Shown here: piece after piece, positions 10,805-37,708 of the stretch
Layout of the letters: every line of letters starts with the position of its first letter
How positions within the stretch are numbered: position 1 is the stretch's first letter
Source of the DNA: a virus
Taxonomy: Duplodnaviria > Heunggongvirae > Uroviricota > Caudoviricetes
Strand: one strand, 5' to 3'
DNA length: 39,317 nt
Virus record (IMG/VR): IMGVR_UViG_2695420380_000015
Position numbers and translations under genes: made by a program
Notes under the pieces: generated by a model
Databases searched by the model: none
Seen by the model: the letters and a program-made list of their open reading frames with translations, nothing else
What the model was told of the DNA's origin: nothing

Positions 10805-10875
10805 TATTCCGCAAATCCTGCCCACTTTTTCCCACGGTTACGCTGACTCAGAGAACACCATGAGACAGCGTAACA

Positions 10876-18860: not shown

Positions 18861-19037
18861 TGGTTTAAGGTATACAAACGCATTACCTTACCCTCTTCAG
18901 GCGCGTGTCGTGATTTTCTAACCTGTATTTAACGGGCTTTAAAATCTGCGTGAAGCGCCTTTCTCATTTTTCCCCTGTCAGCACTTTCTGAAGTCCCGCA
19001 AAACCTGCCCCGAAAAACACCGGCTTATGCTGCCGGA

Positions 19038-20162
19038 ATGAAGACGAAAAACACGCCCAAACTTGCTTATGCCATTCTGAATGCCATCAGCCTGTCCGCA
19101 GACGGGGACGGTGACTGGTGTCAGATCATGCCAGCCGGTCGGGTAAAGGCCCGTGACGGTCGCCCGGAAAAACCGGAGGAAGGCTGGCTGATTAACCATG
19201 CGGCCGTTGAGCGTATGGTATCCGGGGTCGTGGCACTCAATCAGCCGGTGAAGATTGACTATAACCACCAGTCACTGATTGAGGGGCATGCGGCACCGGC
19301 TGCCGGTTTTGTCATGGCCTCGCCGGAGAACTTCCGTTTCAGTGAAGAGCGGGGTTTTGAAGTGCGTCCGAAGTGGAACCCTCCGGCCATTGAACACCTG
19401 CGCAATAACGAATTTCCCTGGTTTTCCCCGGTGATTGGTTATGACGAAATCACCGGTGAACCTGTTGAGCTTCGGATGCTGGCTATTACCGGTGACCCCG
19501 GTCTGACTGGCATGAATCCTGTCGCCGCACTGTCGGCGGATGACCTTTATAACGCCTTAAACCCTCCTTTAAAGGACACCTCCATGAATGAGCAATTACG
19601 CCAGTTGCTGACGGCGCTCGGTCTGACCGTGGCCGACGGTGACGAATTTACACCGGAACTGGGCACGGCGGCGCTGTCTGCCCTTACCGGGATCAAAACC
19701 CGTGCGGATGCGCACGACACCCTGAAAACGCAGGTTGCCAGCCTGTCGGCAGAGCTGGAAACCGCAAAAGGCACACCAACTGGCGGCACTATTGATCTGA
19801 CGAAATACGTGCCCGTTGAGACGTATAACGCCCTGCGTACCGAATATGTCGCGCTGTCGGCACAGCACGGCAGCACCACGCTGGAGCAGTTGCTGGATAA
19901 GGCTGAGTCCGAAGGACGCATTTTCAAAAGCGAACGCGGATACATGGAAGGACTCGGACAACAGATTGGCGTTACAGCACTTTCTGCACAGCTTGACGCC
20001 CGCCAGCCGGTTGCGGCTCTGACCACTCTTCAGACCGACACCGTGACCGTGCCGGATAAAAAGACCGCCACTGCTGTGCTGTCGGCTGAAGATATCGCCG
20101 CCGCCCATCTGCTGGGTAAAACCGAAGCCGAGTTCCTGAAAATGAAAGAGGAAATGCAATAA
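19038..20162 (+). CDS. Head maturation protease / scaffold (Mu I-Z-like)
   Basis: 374-aa ORF immediately upstream of the major head gene; acidic, helical C-terminal half typical of a scaffold. Confidence 0.8.
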   Translation: MKTKNTPKLAYAILNAISLSADGDGDWCQIMPAGRVKARDGRPEKPEEGWLINHAAVERMVSGVVALNQPVKIDYNHQSLIEGHAAPAAGFVMASPENFRFSEERGFEVRPKWNPPAIEHLRNNEFPWFSPVIGYDEITGEPVELRMLAITGDPGLTGMNPVAALSADDLYNALNPPLKDTSMNEQLRQLLTALGLTVADGDEFTPELGTAALSALTGIKTRADAHDTLKTQVASLSAELETAKGTPTGGTIDLTKYVPVETYNALRTEYVALSAQHGSTTLEQLLDKAESEGRIFKSERGYMEGLGQQIGVTALSAQLDARQPVAALTTLQTDTVTVPDKKTATAVLSAEDIAAAHLLGKTEAEFLKMKEEMQ

Positions 20163-31903: not shown

Positions 31904-32454
31904 CCCTGACCCCGCATCAGCGCGCCCTGTTGCAGTTACTGCCTGACGGGCTGGCATGGGACAAGCGTCCGTCATCCGTACTGGCATCATTATGTCTGGG
32001 CCTCAGTCATTCGACAGCGCGTGTATCCTGGACGGGTAAACAGCTGCTTGCCGAGCGTTTCCCTGACACGTCGCGCCTGCTGCTGGAAGACTGGGAGCGT
32101 TATCTCGGGCTTCCCGAGTGTGATATGGCCGGAGCCACCCTCACGGAGCGACAGCGTTATGCCGGAAATAAATACCGGATGAAGCCCTCGCTGAACCGTG
32201 AATTTTATATCCGGTTTGCGGCGGAGTTTGGTTATCAGATTGACATTCAGCCCTCACCGGATTCGCAGTGGGTCAGTATTGTCACGATTAACAGTGAAAC
32301 CGGCTACCGGAATATGAATGTGCTGGATGATATTCTCACGCCGCTGCGTATTTATGAAGGCGGTGCGCTGGAATGTATTCTGAACCGTTATAAGCCTGCA
32401 TGGCAGACGTTTATTTACGTTTATGCAAACAGCCATGAAGAGGAGACTATTTAA
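31894..32454 (+). CDS. Baseplate/tail protein (Mu gp48-like)
   Basis: 186-aa ORF coupled between the wedge and tail-fibre genes. Confidence 0.7.
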
Positions 32455-33335
32455 TGTTTCATGTTGATAATAATTCCGGCGTGGCGAATATGCCTGCGCT
32501 GGCACCGGCGCAGAGTAATACCACCACCTGGTTTACCGAAGGTGACGGACAAAAAGGTATCAGCTGGATTGGTCAGGACTGGCTGAATATTCTCCAGGCC
32601 GAACTGCTGAATATTCTGGCTGAAGCCAGTATTCAGCCGGATAAGGCGCAGTTAAACCAGCTTACGCTGTCCATTAAAGCCATTATCGCTGCGAATGCCT
32701 TTTCCCGGAAAAATAACCTGAAAGAAATTGCTGATGCCGGTGCGGAGGCCCAGCGTCTGGCCCGTGGTTATCTTGGTCTGGGGACGCTTGCCACAAAAAA
32801 CAGTCTTGGTCCCGCTGACGTTAATGCCCTGGCGAAGGATCAGAATCTCGCCGACCTGGAGAATAAGGGAACCGCCCGTAATAATCTGGATGTTTACAGC
32901 AAAAGCGAAGGTGATAACCGTTACCTGCGCAGGGAGCAGAACGGCGCAGACATTCCGGATAAAGGGGCTTTTATCGATAACGTCGGTTTACGGGAAACGG
33001 TAAACAGGGCGGCGAATGCCCTGCCATCGGACGGCACCGCCGTTGCCGCGAACAGGCTGGCAAATGCCCACACAATTAATGGTGTTCCCTTTGACGGGAC
33101 GCAGGATATCACTATCTCATCAGGAACAGTAACCGCCATAAGACTGGGGTCGGTGACCGCACATATGCCCGGAACATGGGAAAGCTGGGATCTGAATCTG
33201 GGGGGCGGCAATGTTCTTACCGGAATTAAAGTACAGGATGTCGGTAAGAATACGGCAGATAACGTCGGCGGCGTGTATTACCGGCCGTTGCAGTATCTGT
33301 TAAATGGAGCATGGGTGACGGCTGCAAGTATATAA
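32454..33335 (+). CDS. Tail fibre protein (Mu S-like): constant N-terminal part, then a C-terminal part inside the invertible segment
   Basis: 293-aa ORF; N-terminus [22 protein letters not shown]...[16 protein letters not shown] is tail-fibre-like; the gix-like site and the inverted repeat lie inside the gene. Confidence 0.8.
32970..32995. promoter_or_regulatory. gix-like recombination site (left): TTATCGATAACG TC GGTTTACGGGAA
   Basis: Resembles the Gin crossover-site half-sites (GGTTTAC-GGAA) and is mirrored by the right site. Confidence 0.55.
32983..33106. repeat. Left inverted repeat (about 124 bp) of the invertible tail-fibre segment
   Basis: Reverse complement aligns with 34178-34292 at high identity, apart from a roughly 25-bp diverged patch. 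Confidence 0.85.
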
Positions 33336-33366
33336 TGATATTCAGAAGGCCTTCCGGCCTTCTTTA

Positions 33367-33888
33367 TTACTGTGGCTGCTCAGGCCATTTAATGGCGTTA
33401 AATTCAGCTTCTGTTTTAATGGCGGGTAGTTCCATTTTCTTCACCTGACTGATGTATGCCATCCATTGGGTAAGTGCTGCTCTGTCTTCATCGCTGATGG
33501 TGCCCAGTTGTAGCTCCGTTCTCCAGTCATTAATTTTTTCATATGCCTGATTAAGATATGACTGGCGCATTGCTTCCAGTTTTCTTGCGTAGTTAACCGG
33601 AATACGGGAGATTATGCCATTATCAAACTTCCAGTTTCCTGAAATATCCGTGCCTTCAGGGAGTTCATCGACCTCAACCACAGAAAACCCCGCAGGATAC
33701 AGCGCCGAGGCGTCCTGTGATATTGAGCAGATAACGCCGCTGTCAGGTGTTATGCAAAGTTTATATTTTTTGGTGAATAATGGCAGGGATTCGTAGAAAT
33801 CCTTACCATCTTCACTCTGGAAATACTGAACATTATTACCATATGGCATATTTTCAGGATAATAACGGGTTATATTTTTTAGTTCCAT
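33367..33888 (-). CDS. Tail fibre assembly protein (Mu U/U'-like), currently on the minus strand
   Basis: 173-aa ORF with RBS AGGAGG, directly downstream (on the minus strand) of the alternative tail-fibre C-terminal cassette. Confidence 0.8.
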   Translation of the reverse strand: MELKNITRYYPENMPYGNNVQYFQSEDGKDFYESLPLFTKKYKLCITPDSGVICSISQDASALYPAGFSVVEVDELPEGTDISGNWKFDNGIISRIPVNYARKLEAMRQSYLNQAYEKINDWRTELQLGTISDEDRAALTQWMAYISQVKKMELPAIKTEAEFNAIKWPEQPQ

Positions 33889-33939
33889 AAAATCCTCCTG
33901 GAAATAAATCTGTTTTAAAATATATTATTTACTGACTAT

Positions 33940-34332
33940 TTATAACTGAGATACCGTAATCCATGTACCTCCGACTAATTTTTGCAGGGGTCTGAATGCT
34001 ATAAAATCGTTTGAAGCATCAACTTTACTGTCAATCTGCAGGCCTGCCATAACATTACCGTACGCAGAGTAATATGCCCCACCGTACATTACCTGCCTGT
34101 TCTCTGCTCCCAGCCTGATATCCTGGATATATCGGGAATCCGCATCCTGCTGTGTTATACCAGAAGTGATGTTTATGTCCTGCGTCCCGTCAAAGGGAAC
34201 CCCATTAATATTTCTTGGGGTGGCGAGTCTATTCGCGGCAACGGCGGTGCCGTCCGATGGCAGAGCATTCGCCGCCCTGTTTACCGTTTCCCGTAAACCG
34301 AGGTTTTCAGGAAAGCCAGGATTAACTCTGTT
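33940..34332 (-). CDS. Start-less alternative tail-fibre C-terminal cassette (S'v-like), silent in this orientation; would fuse to the constant S part after inversion
   Basis: Open frame on the minus strand with no start codon. Begins with the same about 40 aa as S ([26 protein letters not shown]...[11 protein letters not shown]), then diverges; stop at 33942..33940. Confidence 0.7.
   Translation of the reverse strand, partial: NRVNPGFPENLGLRETVNRAANALPSDGTAVAANRLATPRNINGVPFDGTQDINITSGITQQDADSRYIQDIRLGAENRQVMYGGAYYSAYGNVMAGLQIDSKVDASNDFIAFRPLQKLVGGTWITVSQL
34178..34292. repeat. Right inverted repeat of the invertible segment
   Basis: Inverted copy of 32983-33106. Confidence 0.85.
34276..34303. 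promoter_or_regulatory. gix-like recombination site (right): TTTCCCGTAAACC GA GGTTTTCAGGAAA
   Basis: Mirror of the left site, with the same central dinucleotide in inverted orientation; 75 bp upstream of the invertase gene. Confidence 0.55.
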
Positions 34333-34378: not shown

Positions 34379-34951
34379 ATGCTGATTGGGTATATCAGGG
34401 TGTCAACAAATGACCAGAATACGGCGCTACAAAGAAATGCGCTGGAATGTGCAGGATGTGAGCTGTTTTTCGAAGACAGAATAAGCGGTAAGACAAGGGA
34501 GCGTCCCGGACTTAAACGCGCATTAAAGCGACTCCGGCCAGGGGATACCCTGCTGGTCTGGAAACTGGATCGCCTTGGACGCAGTATGCAGCACCTTGTC
34601 CTTTTAACAGAAGAACTCCGGCAACGCGGCGTTAACTTCCGCAGCATTACGGACAATATTGATACATCCACTCCCATGGGACGTTTCTTTTTCCATATAA
34701 TGGGCGCGCTGGCGGAAATGGAGCGGGAACTCATTATTGAACGTACACGCGCGGGTCTTGCTGCTGCCCGTGCTCAGGGGCGTCATGGCGGCAGACCTCA
34801 GAAACTGACAGAGAAAGAGCGGGAGCAAATCGCCCGTTTGCTGGCTAATGGCGAGTCCCGTAAACAAATCGCACTGATATTTGATATTGGCCTTTCCACC
34901 CTTTATCGTTATTTTCCTGCCTCACCAGCTCCGTCACCAAAAGTACCGTGA
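34379..34951 (+). CDS. gin: Serine recombinase DNA invertase (Gin/Hin/Pin/Cin family)
   Basis: 190-aa product with MLIGYIRVSTNDQNT (catalytic Ser), LVWKLDRLGRSM, MGRFFFHIMGALAEMERELIIERT and a C-terminal HTH, as in Gin. Confidence 0.9.
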   Translation: MLIGYIRVSTNDQNTALQRNALECAGCELFFEDRISGKTRERPGLKRALKRLRPGDTLLVWKLDRLGRSMQHLVLLTEELRQRGVNFRSITDNIDTSTPMGRFFFHIMGALAEMERELIIERTRAGLAAARAQGRHGGRPQKLTEKEREQIARLLANGESRKQIALIFDIGLSTLYRYFPASPAPSPKVP

Positions 34952-35036
34952 CGCTTTTTTGAATTTCCGCAAAACACATATTTTTCAGCGGTCGCTATTC
35001 TGACTCTGTTTAATTCAGAAACAGGCAGAAAAGACG

Positions 35037-37091
35037 ATGTCAGACTCCAAGTGGAAAATGCTCTCCGCCATGCCCGGAGAGTTTTCAGTCAAGGTTGCCG
35101 GTGGCACGGTGGCATTTATTGAAAGCCCTTTCCGCCCTTCGGGTAATAAAGGGGGGATCACCTTCGCAGACTGCGTGATCCGCTTCAGCACGAAAGAGCC
35201 ATTATGGGTAATGCCGGTATCCGGTAATCCCAGTGCAGAAATCACCAGTTCAGGCGTGACTGGCATCATTCCAATCACATCTGACGTGGCCGGAACGCTC
35301 ACGCCCTCCGACTGGAATGCACCGGATAACGCCGGGCCTTCCGGTAGCACGAATGGCAGCAGTTCAGAGCCGGAATATTACTTTGTTGTCATTCTCGCGG
35401 GTCAGTCAAATGGCATGGCCTACGGCGAGGGGCTGCCGTTACCGGATTCGTTTGACCGCCCGGACCCACGCATTAAGCAACTGGCACGCCGCAGTACGGT
35501 AACGCCCAACGGTACGTCGTGTACATACAACGACATCATTCCGGCAGACCACTGCCTGCATGATGTTCAGGATATGAGCGGGATAAACCACCCGAAAGCT
35601 GATCTGGCAAAAGGCCAGTACGGGACTGTCGGTCAGGGGTTGCATATTGCCAAAAAACTGCTTCCCTATATCCCACAGAATGCCGGGATACTTCTGGTGC
35701 CCTGTTGTCGTGGCGGGTCAGCATTCACCACTGGAGCCGACGGCTCATTCAGTGAGGCCAGCGGTGCTTCCGCTGATTCTTCACGCTGGGGGGCCGGTAA
35801 ACCTCTGTATCAGGACCTGGTAAGCCGCACCAAAGTCGCGCTGGCGAAAAACCCGAAAAACAAACTTCTGGCTGTGGTCTGGATGCAGGGAGAGGCAGAC
35901 CTTGCCTCAGGAAGCCAGCAGCATAATAGTTTATTCACGGCCATGGTTCAGCAGTTCAGAACTGACCTGGCTCCGCTTGCTGCGCAGTGCGTGAGTGGAA
36001 ATGCCACCACGGTGCCGTGGATTTGCGGTGATACCACGTATTACTGGAAAAACGCTGGCACCGATAAATATGAGGCAGTATACGGTGGCTACAAAGGCAA
36101 GGAAGCACAGAAAATTTTCTTTGTACCGTTCCTGACGGATGAGAATGGACAGAGCACGCCAACGAATGCTCCGGCGGAAGACCCGGATATTGTGGCTGTC
36201 GGGTATTACGGTGCAGCATCCCGAACCCAGGGCAGTTTTGTTTCGACACAGCGTGACAGCCATTTCAGCTCATGGGCACGCAGGGGCGTCATTTCAGACC
36301 GTCTGGCCTCAGCTATTATGCTCCATGCAGGGCGCACGGCTGAACTGATGCGCGGGCAGACCGTGACACCACCGGATGAGAAGCCGTCACCTGATACACC
36401 ATCAAAACCGTCCACGCCACCCGCAGACACCACGACGATGAGTACGCTATTTGCTTACCGGGCATCTGAGTCTGAAGGACGGTTGACACCACAGGGTTGG
36501 GCTGCCGGAGGTGGCAAGGCTCAAATCGTGGATGATGCCGGAGCCAGCGGGGGTAAGGCAATGAAACTGACCAAGGAAACAGGAAGAGCCCCCTGGTACC
36601 TTGAGCATGATGCTGGTAATGGTGCGGACCTGCTGGGTAAAGGTGGTCTTGTCAGTTGTCGTTTTAAACTCGATGGCGCGCTTACGGCTAATCAGTACGC
36701 ACTGGCGCTGTACTGGCCGGTTTCTGCCCTGCCGCAAGGGGTTACTCTGGAAGGAAATGCCGGTCATAACCTGCTGGCATCGTTCTACGTACAGAGCGAT
36801 GCCACAGACCTTAACGTGATGTATCACAAAGGAAACACGGCGCAGAACACGAAGCTGGGGTCATTCGGCGCATTTAATAACGAATGGCATACGCTGGGCT
36901 TCCGTTTTGCCGGTAACAACAGTATTGAGGTGACGCCGGTCATTGATGGTAAGGACGGGACACCATTCATGCTGTCGCAGTCTCCGGTCGGCACGTTTAC
37001 GGCAGACAAGTTGCGCGTGACCGATATCACTAAAAATGCGACTTACCCGGTACTGATTGACAGTATCGTGGTGGAAGTGAATAACGCGTAA
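35037..37091 (+). CDS. SASA-family (SGNH-like) O-acetylesterase resembling NanS / prophage NanS-p sialate O-acetylesterase, with extra N- and C-terminal domains
   Basis: 684-aa ORF. Core motifs YYFVVILAGQSNGMAYGEGLPLPD, GQYGTVGQGLHIAKKLLP, VPCCRGGSAFT, WMQGEADL resemble E. coli NanS (YjhS) as I remember it. Flanked by an about 120-aa N-terminal domain and an about 250-aa C-terminal domain. Confidence 0.7.
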   Translation: MSDSKWKMLSAMPGEFSVKVAGGTVAFIESPFRPSGNKGGITFADCVIRFSTKEPLWVMPVSGNPSAEITSSGVTGIIPITSDVAGTLTPSDWNAPDNAGPSGSTNGSSSEPEYYFVVILAGQSNGMAYGEGLPLPDSFDRPDPRIKQLARRSTVTPNGTSCTYNDIIPADHCLHDVQDMSGINHPKADLAKGQYGTVGQGLHIAKKLLPYIPQNAGILLVPCCRGGSAFTTGADGSFSEASGASADSSRWGAGKPLYQDLVSRTKVALAKNPKNKLLAVVWMQGEADLASGSQQHNSLFTAMVQQFRTDLAPLAAQCVSGNATTVPWICGDTTYYWKNAGTDKYEAVYGGYKGKEAQKIFFVPFLTDENGQSTPTNAPAEDPDIVAVGYYGAASRTQGSFVSTQRDSHFSSWARRGVISDRLASAIMLHAGRTAELMRGQTVTPPDEKPSPDTPSKPSTPPADTTTMSTLFAYRASESEGRLTPQGWAAGGGKAQIVDDAGASGGKAMKLTKETGRAPWYLEHDAGNGADLLGKGGLVSCRFKLDGALTANQYALALYWPVSALPQGVTLEGNAGHNLLASFYVQSDATDLNVMYHKGNTAQNTKLGSFGAFNNEWHTLGFRFAGNNSIEVTPVIDGKDGTPFMLSQSPVGTFTADKLRVTDITKNATYPVLIDSIVVEVNNA

Positions 37092-37139: not shown

Positions 37140-37235
37140 AAAAAGATCGTTATATCCAAAGCAAAAAATGCAGTGCACCTTTTTACCTAACAGATATTAC
37201 CGGTGTCAACACCATGTCAATAATTGGGAGGGATA

Positions 37236-37418
37236 ATGACATTTTTACAGCTTATTTTATTGTATTTCTGCACGGCAGTATGTGCGTTATATCTGGTGAG
37301 TGGTGGTTATAAGGCCATCAGAAATTATGTTCGCCGCAAAATTGAGGACGCAGCAGCTGAAAAACTCAGTAAAACAGCGCAGGTAACTCCGCTCCCAAAA
37401 GACCCGACCCAGCCCTGA
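37236..37418 (+). CDS. Small membrane protein (60 aa, single TM)
   Basis: ATG at 37236 with GGGAGG 4 nt upstream; hydrophobic N-terminus FLQLILLYFCTAVCALYLV. Confidence 0.45.
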   Translation: MTFLQLILLYFCTAVCALYLVSGGYKAIRNYVRRKIEDAAAEKLSKTAQVTPLPKDPTQP

Positions 37419-37453: not shown

Positions 37454-37708
37454 ATGCCAGAAATTAAAGGCACCGTCACTGAAGACCTGGTAAAACAGGC
37501 ACTGTATTCCGGTGAAGTAAATAAGTTGCTGAAAGCGCAGGTCCGCAAGGATTTTGAGGCACAAATCGACACTTACGTTGATGAAGTGCTGGCAAAACTT
37601 ATTGGGCCAGCAGTTGCGGCCAGTGATGCTGATAATGAGCCGAAAACCGACGCGCAGCCAGAGCAACCAGACCCGGCTCAGCCCGGAACTGACAGTACCA
37701 TGATGTAA
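37454..37708 (+). CDS. Small acidic hypothetical protein (84 aa)
   Basis: Strong RBS AAGGAGG 7 nt upstream of the ATG. Confidence 0.5.
   Translation: MPEIKGTVTEDLVKQALYSGEVNKLLKAQVRKDFEAQIDTYVDEVLAKLIGPAVAASDADNEPKTDAQPEQPDPAQPGTDSTMM

Follow-up and report, generated by a model that had tools for sequence, protein, structure and literature searches.

The stretch of DNA analyzed here, hereafter called the window, is an IMG/VR virus record of 39,317 nucleotides (IMGVR_UViG_2695420380_000015, Caudoviricetes) that corresponds to a Mu-like (Sp18-like) prophage of Escherichia coli, and the element of interest is a short segment that includes the 3' part of its tail-fibre gene S. This segment is bounded by two gix-like crossover sites and is very likely an active Gin/gix inversion switch, a much reduced homologue of the Mu G segment. 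The left site matches Mu gixL at 22 of 26 positions and the right site matches at 21 of 26, with columns that align with Mu gixL and gixR; the two sites are inverted relative to each other, have TC as central dinucleotide in both cases and enclose 1,317 bp between their crossover dinucleotides (32984-34300). To the right of the segment lies a gene for a serine DNA invertase that is 74% identical to Mu Gin (Pfam Resolvase 1.6e-51, HTH_7 4.9e-15; PHROG 'DNA invertase' 1.9e-94). The segment itself holds two alternative C-terminal cassettes of S, called X (Sv) and Y (S'v), and a single tail-fibre assembly (Tfa) gene that is located 3' of Y and is antisense to S in the state seen in the window. The coordinates of all features are collected in Table 1.

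In the window state, gene S extends from 32454 to 33335 and encodes 293 amino acids, while flipping the segment in silico keeps the frame and gives a protein of 296 amino acids, both forms being open to their stop codon. A constant part of 176-177 amino acids is then joined in frame to either of two tips of ~117 amino acids. Over residues 1-191, S is homologous to Mu S (PDB 5yvq and 8ju3; E about 1e-46), and Mu S is 47% identical to the window over 32454-33047 (tblastn). An inverted repeat of ~150 bp overall extends inward from the two crossover sites, made of an 86-nt part (32976-33061 / 34223-34308, 93% complementary) and a 50-nt part (33075-33124 / 34160-34209, 84% complementary), and all remaining inverted repeats in the surrounding 5.5 kb are of 25 nt or less. 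This repeat codes for about 45-48 residues that are common to both tips; past the shared 45 residues, X and Y are ~30% identical. The best matches of tip X are the tail fibres of P1 (51%, 7e-19), SfMu (47%, 2e-16) and P2 (45%, 1e-15), those of tip Y are P2-like, Yersinia and P7 Sv' tips (44-47%, down to 2e-12), and both X and Y show a weak alignment to the C-terminal ~70 residues of Mu S and S'. By sequence, both tips are therefore assigned to the tip family of Mu S/S', P1 S and P2 H. We also observed that the G+C content is uneven within 32984-34300: it is 54% in cassette X, as in the phage backbone, 49% in cassette Y and 43% in tfa, which hints that the Y tip and tfa were acquired separately as one module.

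An earlier note on this DNA had described a Gin-type segment of about 1.3 kb between two gix-like sites, with a plus-strand Sv, a start-less minus-strand S'v and a tail-fibre assembly gene behind the latter only. All of this was recovered at the positions given in Table 1. The inverted repeats announced by that note are also present, but they are longer than the ~120 bp and encode more shared residues than the ~40 that it gave.

That the segment inverts in nature within a clone was observed directly when the window was compared with complete E. coli genomes. The window orientation is present at 99% identity or more in about 17-20 of them, whereas the sequence flipped in silico gives a single unbroken match at 99.7-99.9% identity in four (DLI.5a, TOE17, NCCP 13983 and FORC_043), and the ~25 near-identical prophage copies include both states. 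FORC_029 (5,189,944 bp) and NCCP 13983 (5,189,943 bp) are near-identical Korean stool isolates that show 819 differences over 8,601 bp as deposited and none after flipping 32984-34300. In addition, three single nucleotide polymorphisms that are specific to one repeat arm in this lineage move with the segment, confining the crossover to 32983-33001, an interval that begins at the TC core. DLI.5a and TOE17 each carry two copies of the prophage, in opposite states. These genomes hence do not have the single fixed orientation that the earlier note had named as the result that would speak against it. An alternative would be that no inversion takes place any more, with repeats that are a mere relic or with opposite orientations that are assembly artefacts across these repeats. 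Some assemblies are indeed messy, with an invertase gene that is frameshifted in DLI.5a, AST46 and STEC2017-197 and with scrambled prophage copies in JKHS016 and DLI.5a. Nevertheless, the invertase gene is intact in the window and in most copies, the boundaries of the flip fall exactly at the gix cores, the arm-specific polymorphisms travel with the segment, repeats of ~150 bp around a 1.3-kb segment are spanned by the long reads of complete genomes, and mixed reads would in themselves signal inversion. A relic is excluded since opposite states were found with a boundary at the gix core, and we consider this alternative as a whole to be extremely improbable. Altogether, the recombinase, the sites, the in-frame fusion and the natural inversion place the segment in the Gin/gix class.

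Table 1. Positions of the segment features and of other elements of the window mentioned in the text
Feature	Position	Strand	Description
Putative late promoters	10809-10850 (lys), 18996-19040 (protease I)	+	CCGCAAA[TA]CCTGCCC, then TTACGCT or TTATGCT ~18-20 nt later
Sc, constant part of tail-fibre gene S	32454-32983	+	~177 codons to the crossover
Left crossover site, gixL-like	32971-32996		TTATCGATAACG-TC-GGTTTACGGGAA; central TC at 32983-32984
Inverted-repeat arms	32976-33124 (left), 34160-34308 (right)		
Cassette X (Sv)	32984-33335	+	type A tip; 116 amino acids and stop; no tfa on its strand
GC-rich hairpin	33344-33363		AGAAGGCCTTCCGGCCTTCT then TTATT; between convergent Sv and tfa; terminator-like on + strand
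tfa, tail-fibre assembly gene	33367-33888	-	173 amino acids; AGGAGG ribosome-binding site; Pfam Caudo_TAP PF02413, 4.8e-19
Spacer, Y stop to tfa start	33889-33939	-	51 nt, 78% A+T
Cassette Y (S'v)	33940-34300	-	type B tip; 119 amino acids and stop; own start codon absent; tfa 3' on its strand
Right crossover site, gixR-like	34288-34313		reverse complement TTCCTGAAAACC-TC-GGTTTACGGGAA; central GA at 34300-34301
Serine DNA invertase (Gin/Cin/Pin/Hin family)	34379-34951	+	190 amino acids; catalytic Ser9 present
Candidate recombinational enhancer	34379-34483		first ~35 invertase codons
Diverged late-promoter copy	34967-35010	+	TTCCGCAAAACACAT...CTATTCTGACTC; upstream of esterase gene
Esterase gene	35037-37091	+	684-amino acid protein; SASA (sialate O-acetylesterase) domain and DUF6645; PHROG 143, 1.7e-296
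DUF1378 and DUF826 genes	37224-37418 and 37454-37708		3' of esterase gene

In the mechanism that we propose, the invertase would recombine the two inverted 26-bp sites, one of which is inside S, at their common central TC, and flipping the 1,317 bp joins the constant ~177 residues of S to tip X, as in the window, or to tip Y, as in the inverted state. A population of lysogens would then release two types of particles, presumably differing in host range. Different receptor specificities of the X and Y tips would be compatible with their ~30% identity. Recombination may also be assisted by a DNA element that overlaps the 5' end of the invertase gene. Among 14 distinct invertase genes, the entropy of third codon positions rises from 0.4-0.6 within codons 1-35 to 0.9-1.1 beyond them. 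Synonymous variation in the first stretch is thus about half that of the remaining gene, which indirectly suggests an overlapping element, a candidate recombinational enhancer. Its DNA is also closely similar to that at the 5' end of Mu gin; in the Gin and Hin systems, an enhancer bound by Fis sits in the 5' part of the invertase gene.

The feature that sets this segment apart is that it has one tfa gene for two tips. The protein matches PHROG 136 (4.7e-56) and Mu U (PDB 5yvq chain B, E 4e-16 over residues 18-153); with identities of 32% to Mu U' and 28% to Mu U, the comparison is uninformative as to which of the two it is closer to. No second tfa homologue was detected in the whole 39-kb window, and a remnant of one behind X was ruled out because the 31 nt that separate the Sv stop from the tfa stop, hairpin included, leave no room for it. 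In Mu, each cassette is followed by its own assembly gene (S-U and S'-U'), a typical feature of such segments that is not required for recombination and that is absent here. Diverged relatives, among them an O157:H7 strain of the Sp18 type, STEC2017-197 and STEC299, have both gix sites, a segment of 1.32-1.39 kb and exactly one tfa; the two tip cassettes of these three differ, and so does their Tfa, by 11-42%. The same layout was found in ~30 IMG/VR loci of the Sp18-like prophage family, while more distant Tfa homologues belong to classic invertible segments with two tfa genes (IMG/VR L085, L086, L095 and L099). The single-chaperone layout is therefore a conserved design of the Sp18-like family and not an accident. 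Five types of tips were distinguished in this family: the tfa-less position X is occupied by type A or D and the tfa-side position Y by type B, C or E. Types A and D form a recognisable subgroup with the motif ...ADN[VI]GGVYYRP[LV]Q, and type E resembles the Mu S tip. With cassettes of ~117 residues, one chaperone and 1.3 kb, this was the smallest complete tail-fibre inversion segment that we found.

Considering that only Y is followed by tfa, the earlier note had suggested that the window orientation may be a chaperone-less state. This stands for gene order, but probably not for function, since selection on X, the free assortment of Tfa alleles and X-like tips that are paired with a Tfa elsewhere favour a chaperone shared by both tips, and we lean, with modest confidence, towards a single Tfa that acts as a generalist serving X and Y. 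Cassette X is intact in every clean assembly that we examined. The ratio of non-synonymous to synonymous substitution rates (dN/dS) of X amounts to 0.148 when the window is compared with STEC2017-197 (differences: 24.5 synonymous, 12.5 non-synonymous) and to 0.075 for O157 compared with STEC299 (61.8 and 31.2, respectively), so that the tfa-less cassette is, judging from these substitution patterns, functional and under purifying selection. Since X can be expressed only when tfa is antisense, such values imply that it must fold somehow in that state. In Mu, the N-domain of Tfa binds the distal fibre and remains in the virion, while a conserved C-domain drives trimerisation (PMC9608196). Members of the tip family to which X and Y were assigned come with a Tfa, and a dependence of both tips on Tfa would follow from this membership.

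Comparisons within and outside of the family point to a broad specificity of this Tfa. STEC2017-197 (tips A/E) and STEC299 (tips D/C) have nearly identical Tfa proteins, whereas O157 and STEC299 have the same D/C tip types with Tfa proteins that are only about 60-75% identical; IMG/VR loci add D/E combinations with either Tfa allele. As Tfa alleles thus occur in free combination with all five tip types (A to E), their specificity appears to be broad. Moreover, in non-invertible phages from IMG/VR (loci L055-L066 and L083), the gene directly behind a D-like tip, ~14 nt further on, is a tfa in the same orientation: these tips are 57-72% identical to type D of position X by tblastn census (62-70% over aligned loci), and the fibre-binding N-domain of their Tfa is 63-66% identical to that of the window, while tips B, C and E are only 20-36% identical to these fibres. 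By homology, the Tfa family of the window would then be the natural partner of X-like tips. A lineage in which most of Y and almost the entire invertase gene are missing, with one shared junction that connects the final ~60 nt of Y to position 34885, was found in seven complete E. coli genomes (M3 [L009 2990-3294], M1, M18, CI5, JE86-ST05, JE86-ST02 and S1-CAM-01-A) and in seven IMG/VR loci (L032 and L036-L041). It is fixed in the X state with tfa antisense, and its S and tfa genes are intact in at least four haplotypes that cover both X types.

If the chaperone is shared, tfa needs a transcription that is independent of the late operon in the X state, being antisense to S, and several observations weigh against this. 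A minus-strand promoter for tfa was not found by consensus scan; a relaxed sigma-70 scan gave matches of 8-9/12, with 8 weak sites, no excess over the 6.5 +/- 2.6 of shuffled sequences. Promoter-like matches in the 51-nt spacer are weak (8/12) and not above chance. The best candidate of the relaxed scan (AGGACA-16-TATAAC with TG, 34181-34154, inside Y) was rejected, as relatives do not retain its -10 element and the locked lineage lacks the region. The late-promoter box of Mu (CATAACCCC, C-box) is not used by the window phage, whose own putative box CCGCAAAnCCTGCCC has perfect copies only upstream of lys and of I. All copies of this late promoter are on the plus strand, and the diverged one at 34967 is directed away from tfa. 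The spacer 5' of tfa is long in the family (51-125 nt, where Mu has 2 nt and the non-invertible relatives have ~14 nt), which is suggestive, but the spacers of the window, O157 and STEC299 types are non-homologous and no conserved element was found upstream of tfa. Finally, tfa of the locked lineage may have diverged before the deletion occurred, its alleles being brought in by recombination, so that its intact tfa is only supportive.

Two other explanations of the layout do without a shared chaperone. Tfa might serve Y only, with X folding and trimerising without phage Tfa or borrowing the Tfa of another prophage, in which case fibres that are assisted, and perhaps capped, by Tfa would alternate with fibres that are free of it. 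Such an asymmetry would account for a tfa that is co-oriented with Y alone and separated from the X stop by 31 nt and a hairpin, for the promoter that was not found in the X state and for an X tip that is clearly functional and must have some folding route; it also fits with X tips (A and D) that share the subgroup motif and with an X state that is commoner in assemblies, at about 4:1. On the other hand, X tips belong to a family (Mu S', P1 S and P2 H) whose members are accompanied by Tfa, the nearest X-like tips outside of the prophage family each directly precede a Tfa of the same family, and the X-locked lineage retains an intact tfa. We therefore regard a Tfa restricted to Y as unlikely, if worth keeping in mind. 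The second explanation is that X is an OFF or defective state, either because its fibre misfolds without chaperone, making the segment an on/off switch, or because X is decaying after the loss of its own tfa. The antisense position of tfa in the X state would be in line with this, as would a layout that looks like one tfa was lost when it is compared with the classic segments of Mu, L085, L086, L095 and L099. Yet X is intact in all the clean assemblies and under strong purifying selection with many synonymous changes, two X types are kept across the prophage family, the lineage that lost its invertase is fixed in X with an intact S, and the O157 relative Sp18 was reported as predicted to be intact, with DNA that is efficiently packaged (PMC2669165). 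An OFF state thus looks quite improbable. As for the orientation counts, the tfa-antisense state is ~4 times commoner in assemblies (about 17-20 versus 4-5 in RefSeq, ~12 versus 3-5 in IMG/VR); this ratio was set aside as a sign of selection, as the genomes are not independent.

A further version of the shared chaperone would be that tfa is expressed in both states, by heavy read-through from the late operon in the Y state and only from a weak independent promoter in the X state, and serves both tips, so that inversion would also alter the capping of fibres by Tfa. Mu Tfa stays on the fibre tip of the virion (PMC9608196). We hold this version to be rather doubtful. If it were true, a variable capping by Tfa would add a second layer of receptor specificity, the extreme case being a Tfa-capped versus a Tfa-free fibre.

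Compared with the Mu G segment, the window segment sits in the same type of prophage backbone, has a homologous S N-terminus (E 1e-46), shares the TC core and has its crossover where Mu has it in the S protein (GL[RQ]ETVN), and its invertase gene has the same place and orientation. The tips have the C-terminal motif RPxQ..NGxW of Mu S/S', and Tfa is homologous to both U and U'. As the earlier note had seen, the segment is smaller and more asymmetric than that of Mu, with 1,317 bp instead of 3,058 bp and one tfa instead of two. Its variable parts have 116-119 amino acids and lack the shaft portion, compared to about 318-334 in Mu, while its inverted repeat of ~150 bp, coding for ~45 shared residues, is longer than the 34 bp of Mu. 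A 51-nt AT-rich spacer precedes tfa, where Mu has only 2 nt, and the convergent genes are separated by a hairpin. The invertible host-specificity region of Sp18 in E. coli O157:H7 Sakai, already noted in 2009 (Asadulghani et al.), is of the same family and architecture, with DNA that is 85% identical over shared parts, and it likewise contains a single tfa along with the invertase, both gix sites and the DUF6645 gene; it differs by its tips (C and D, instead of B and A in the window) and by its Tfa allele (about 60-75% identical).

Similarities extend to the C segment of P1/P7 and the P segment of e14, which have the same class of serine invertase and crossover sites and inverted repeats that reach into coding sequence. 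The tips of these Cin/Pin systems are of the tip family of X and Y (a P1 tail fibre is the best phage match of X, at 51%, and P7 Sv' matches Y), and the gene upstream of S in the window is annotated as YmfQ family, an e14 name. The P1/P7 C and e14 P segments have a tfa for each orientation, and their sizes are ~4.2 kb for P1 C and ~1.8 kb for e14 P. The fibre-Tfa pairs of L055-L066 and L083, which resemble the tip X type D and the Tfa N-domain of the window as described above, differ from it in that they have neither an invertase nor gix sites, with a single tip and a tfa that is co-oriented and adjacent. Mu-type inversions of prophage fibres figure in surveys of programmed inversions (PMC9881135, PMC4272514); in open-access text, we found no paper on a single-chaperone layout, on an antisense tfa or on the chaperoning of a second tip.

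The prophage that carries the segment is Mu-like: GemA, C/Mor, Lys, G, I, T, L, N, P, gp45, S, Gin, Com and Mom of Mu all have colinear homologues in the window (tblastn, 28-78% identity), and it has a Mu-type gene set and order (Gam, Mor/C, lys, I, T, L, N, P, gp45-48, S, gin, com, mom). The Mor/C homologue is the only one in the phage (10394-10801). Homologues of Mu gp47 (Baseplate_J) and gp48 precede S, the Pfam matches in the window include Phage_Mu_Gp48 and Baseplate_J, and an identical prophage copy is annotated in RefSeq with Gam, Mor-family, gpT-family and Com-family genes. The segment occurs in 237 of the 5,426 complete E. coli genomes (~4%), O157:H7 among them. When the S protein was searched against a set with a single genome for each species, only 8 loci were obtained, and this segment was absent from all of them. 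Unlike in Mu, where only Pmom lies between the invertase gene and com/mom, this interval holds three genes in the window, encoding the esterase and the DUF1378 and DUF826 proteins; this set resembles the NanS-p esterase cassettes of Shiga toxin (Stx) phages. Scrambled or internally deleted copies of the prophage occur in several complete genomes (L001 in JKHS016, L004 and L005 in DLI.5a, L010 in AST46), with head/tail genes that are inverted or truncated, two copies per genome and some frameshifted invertase genes; these could be genuine Mu-type rearrangements or errors of assembly or sequencing.

Invertible tail-fibre segments are a textbook case of programmed host-range variation, and the segment described here is a compact variant of this well-known system: an ordinary host-range switch whose odd feature is the presence of one tfa for two tips. 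If X folds without Tfa, this would contradict what is expected for the tip family of Mu S, P1 S and P2 H. If one Tfa serves many tips, the family would instead provide a clean system to ask what Tfa recognises and, with at least five interchangeable tips, a compact natural chassis for retargeting Mu-type fibres.

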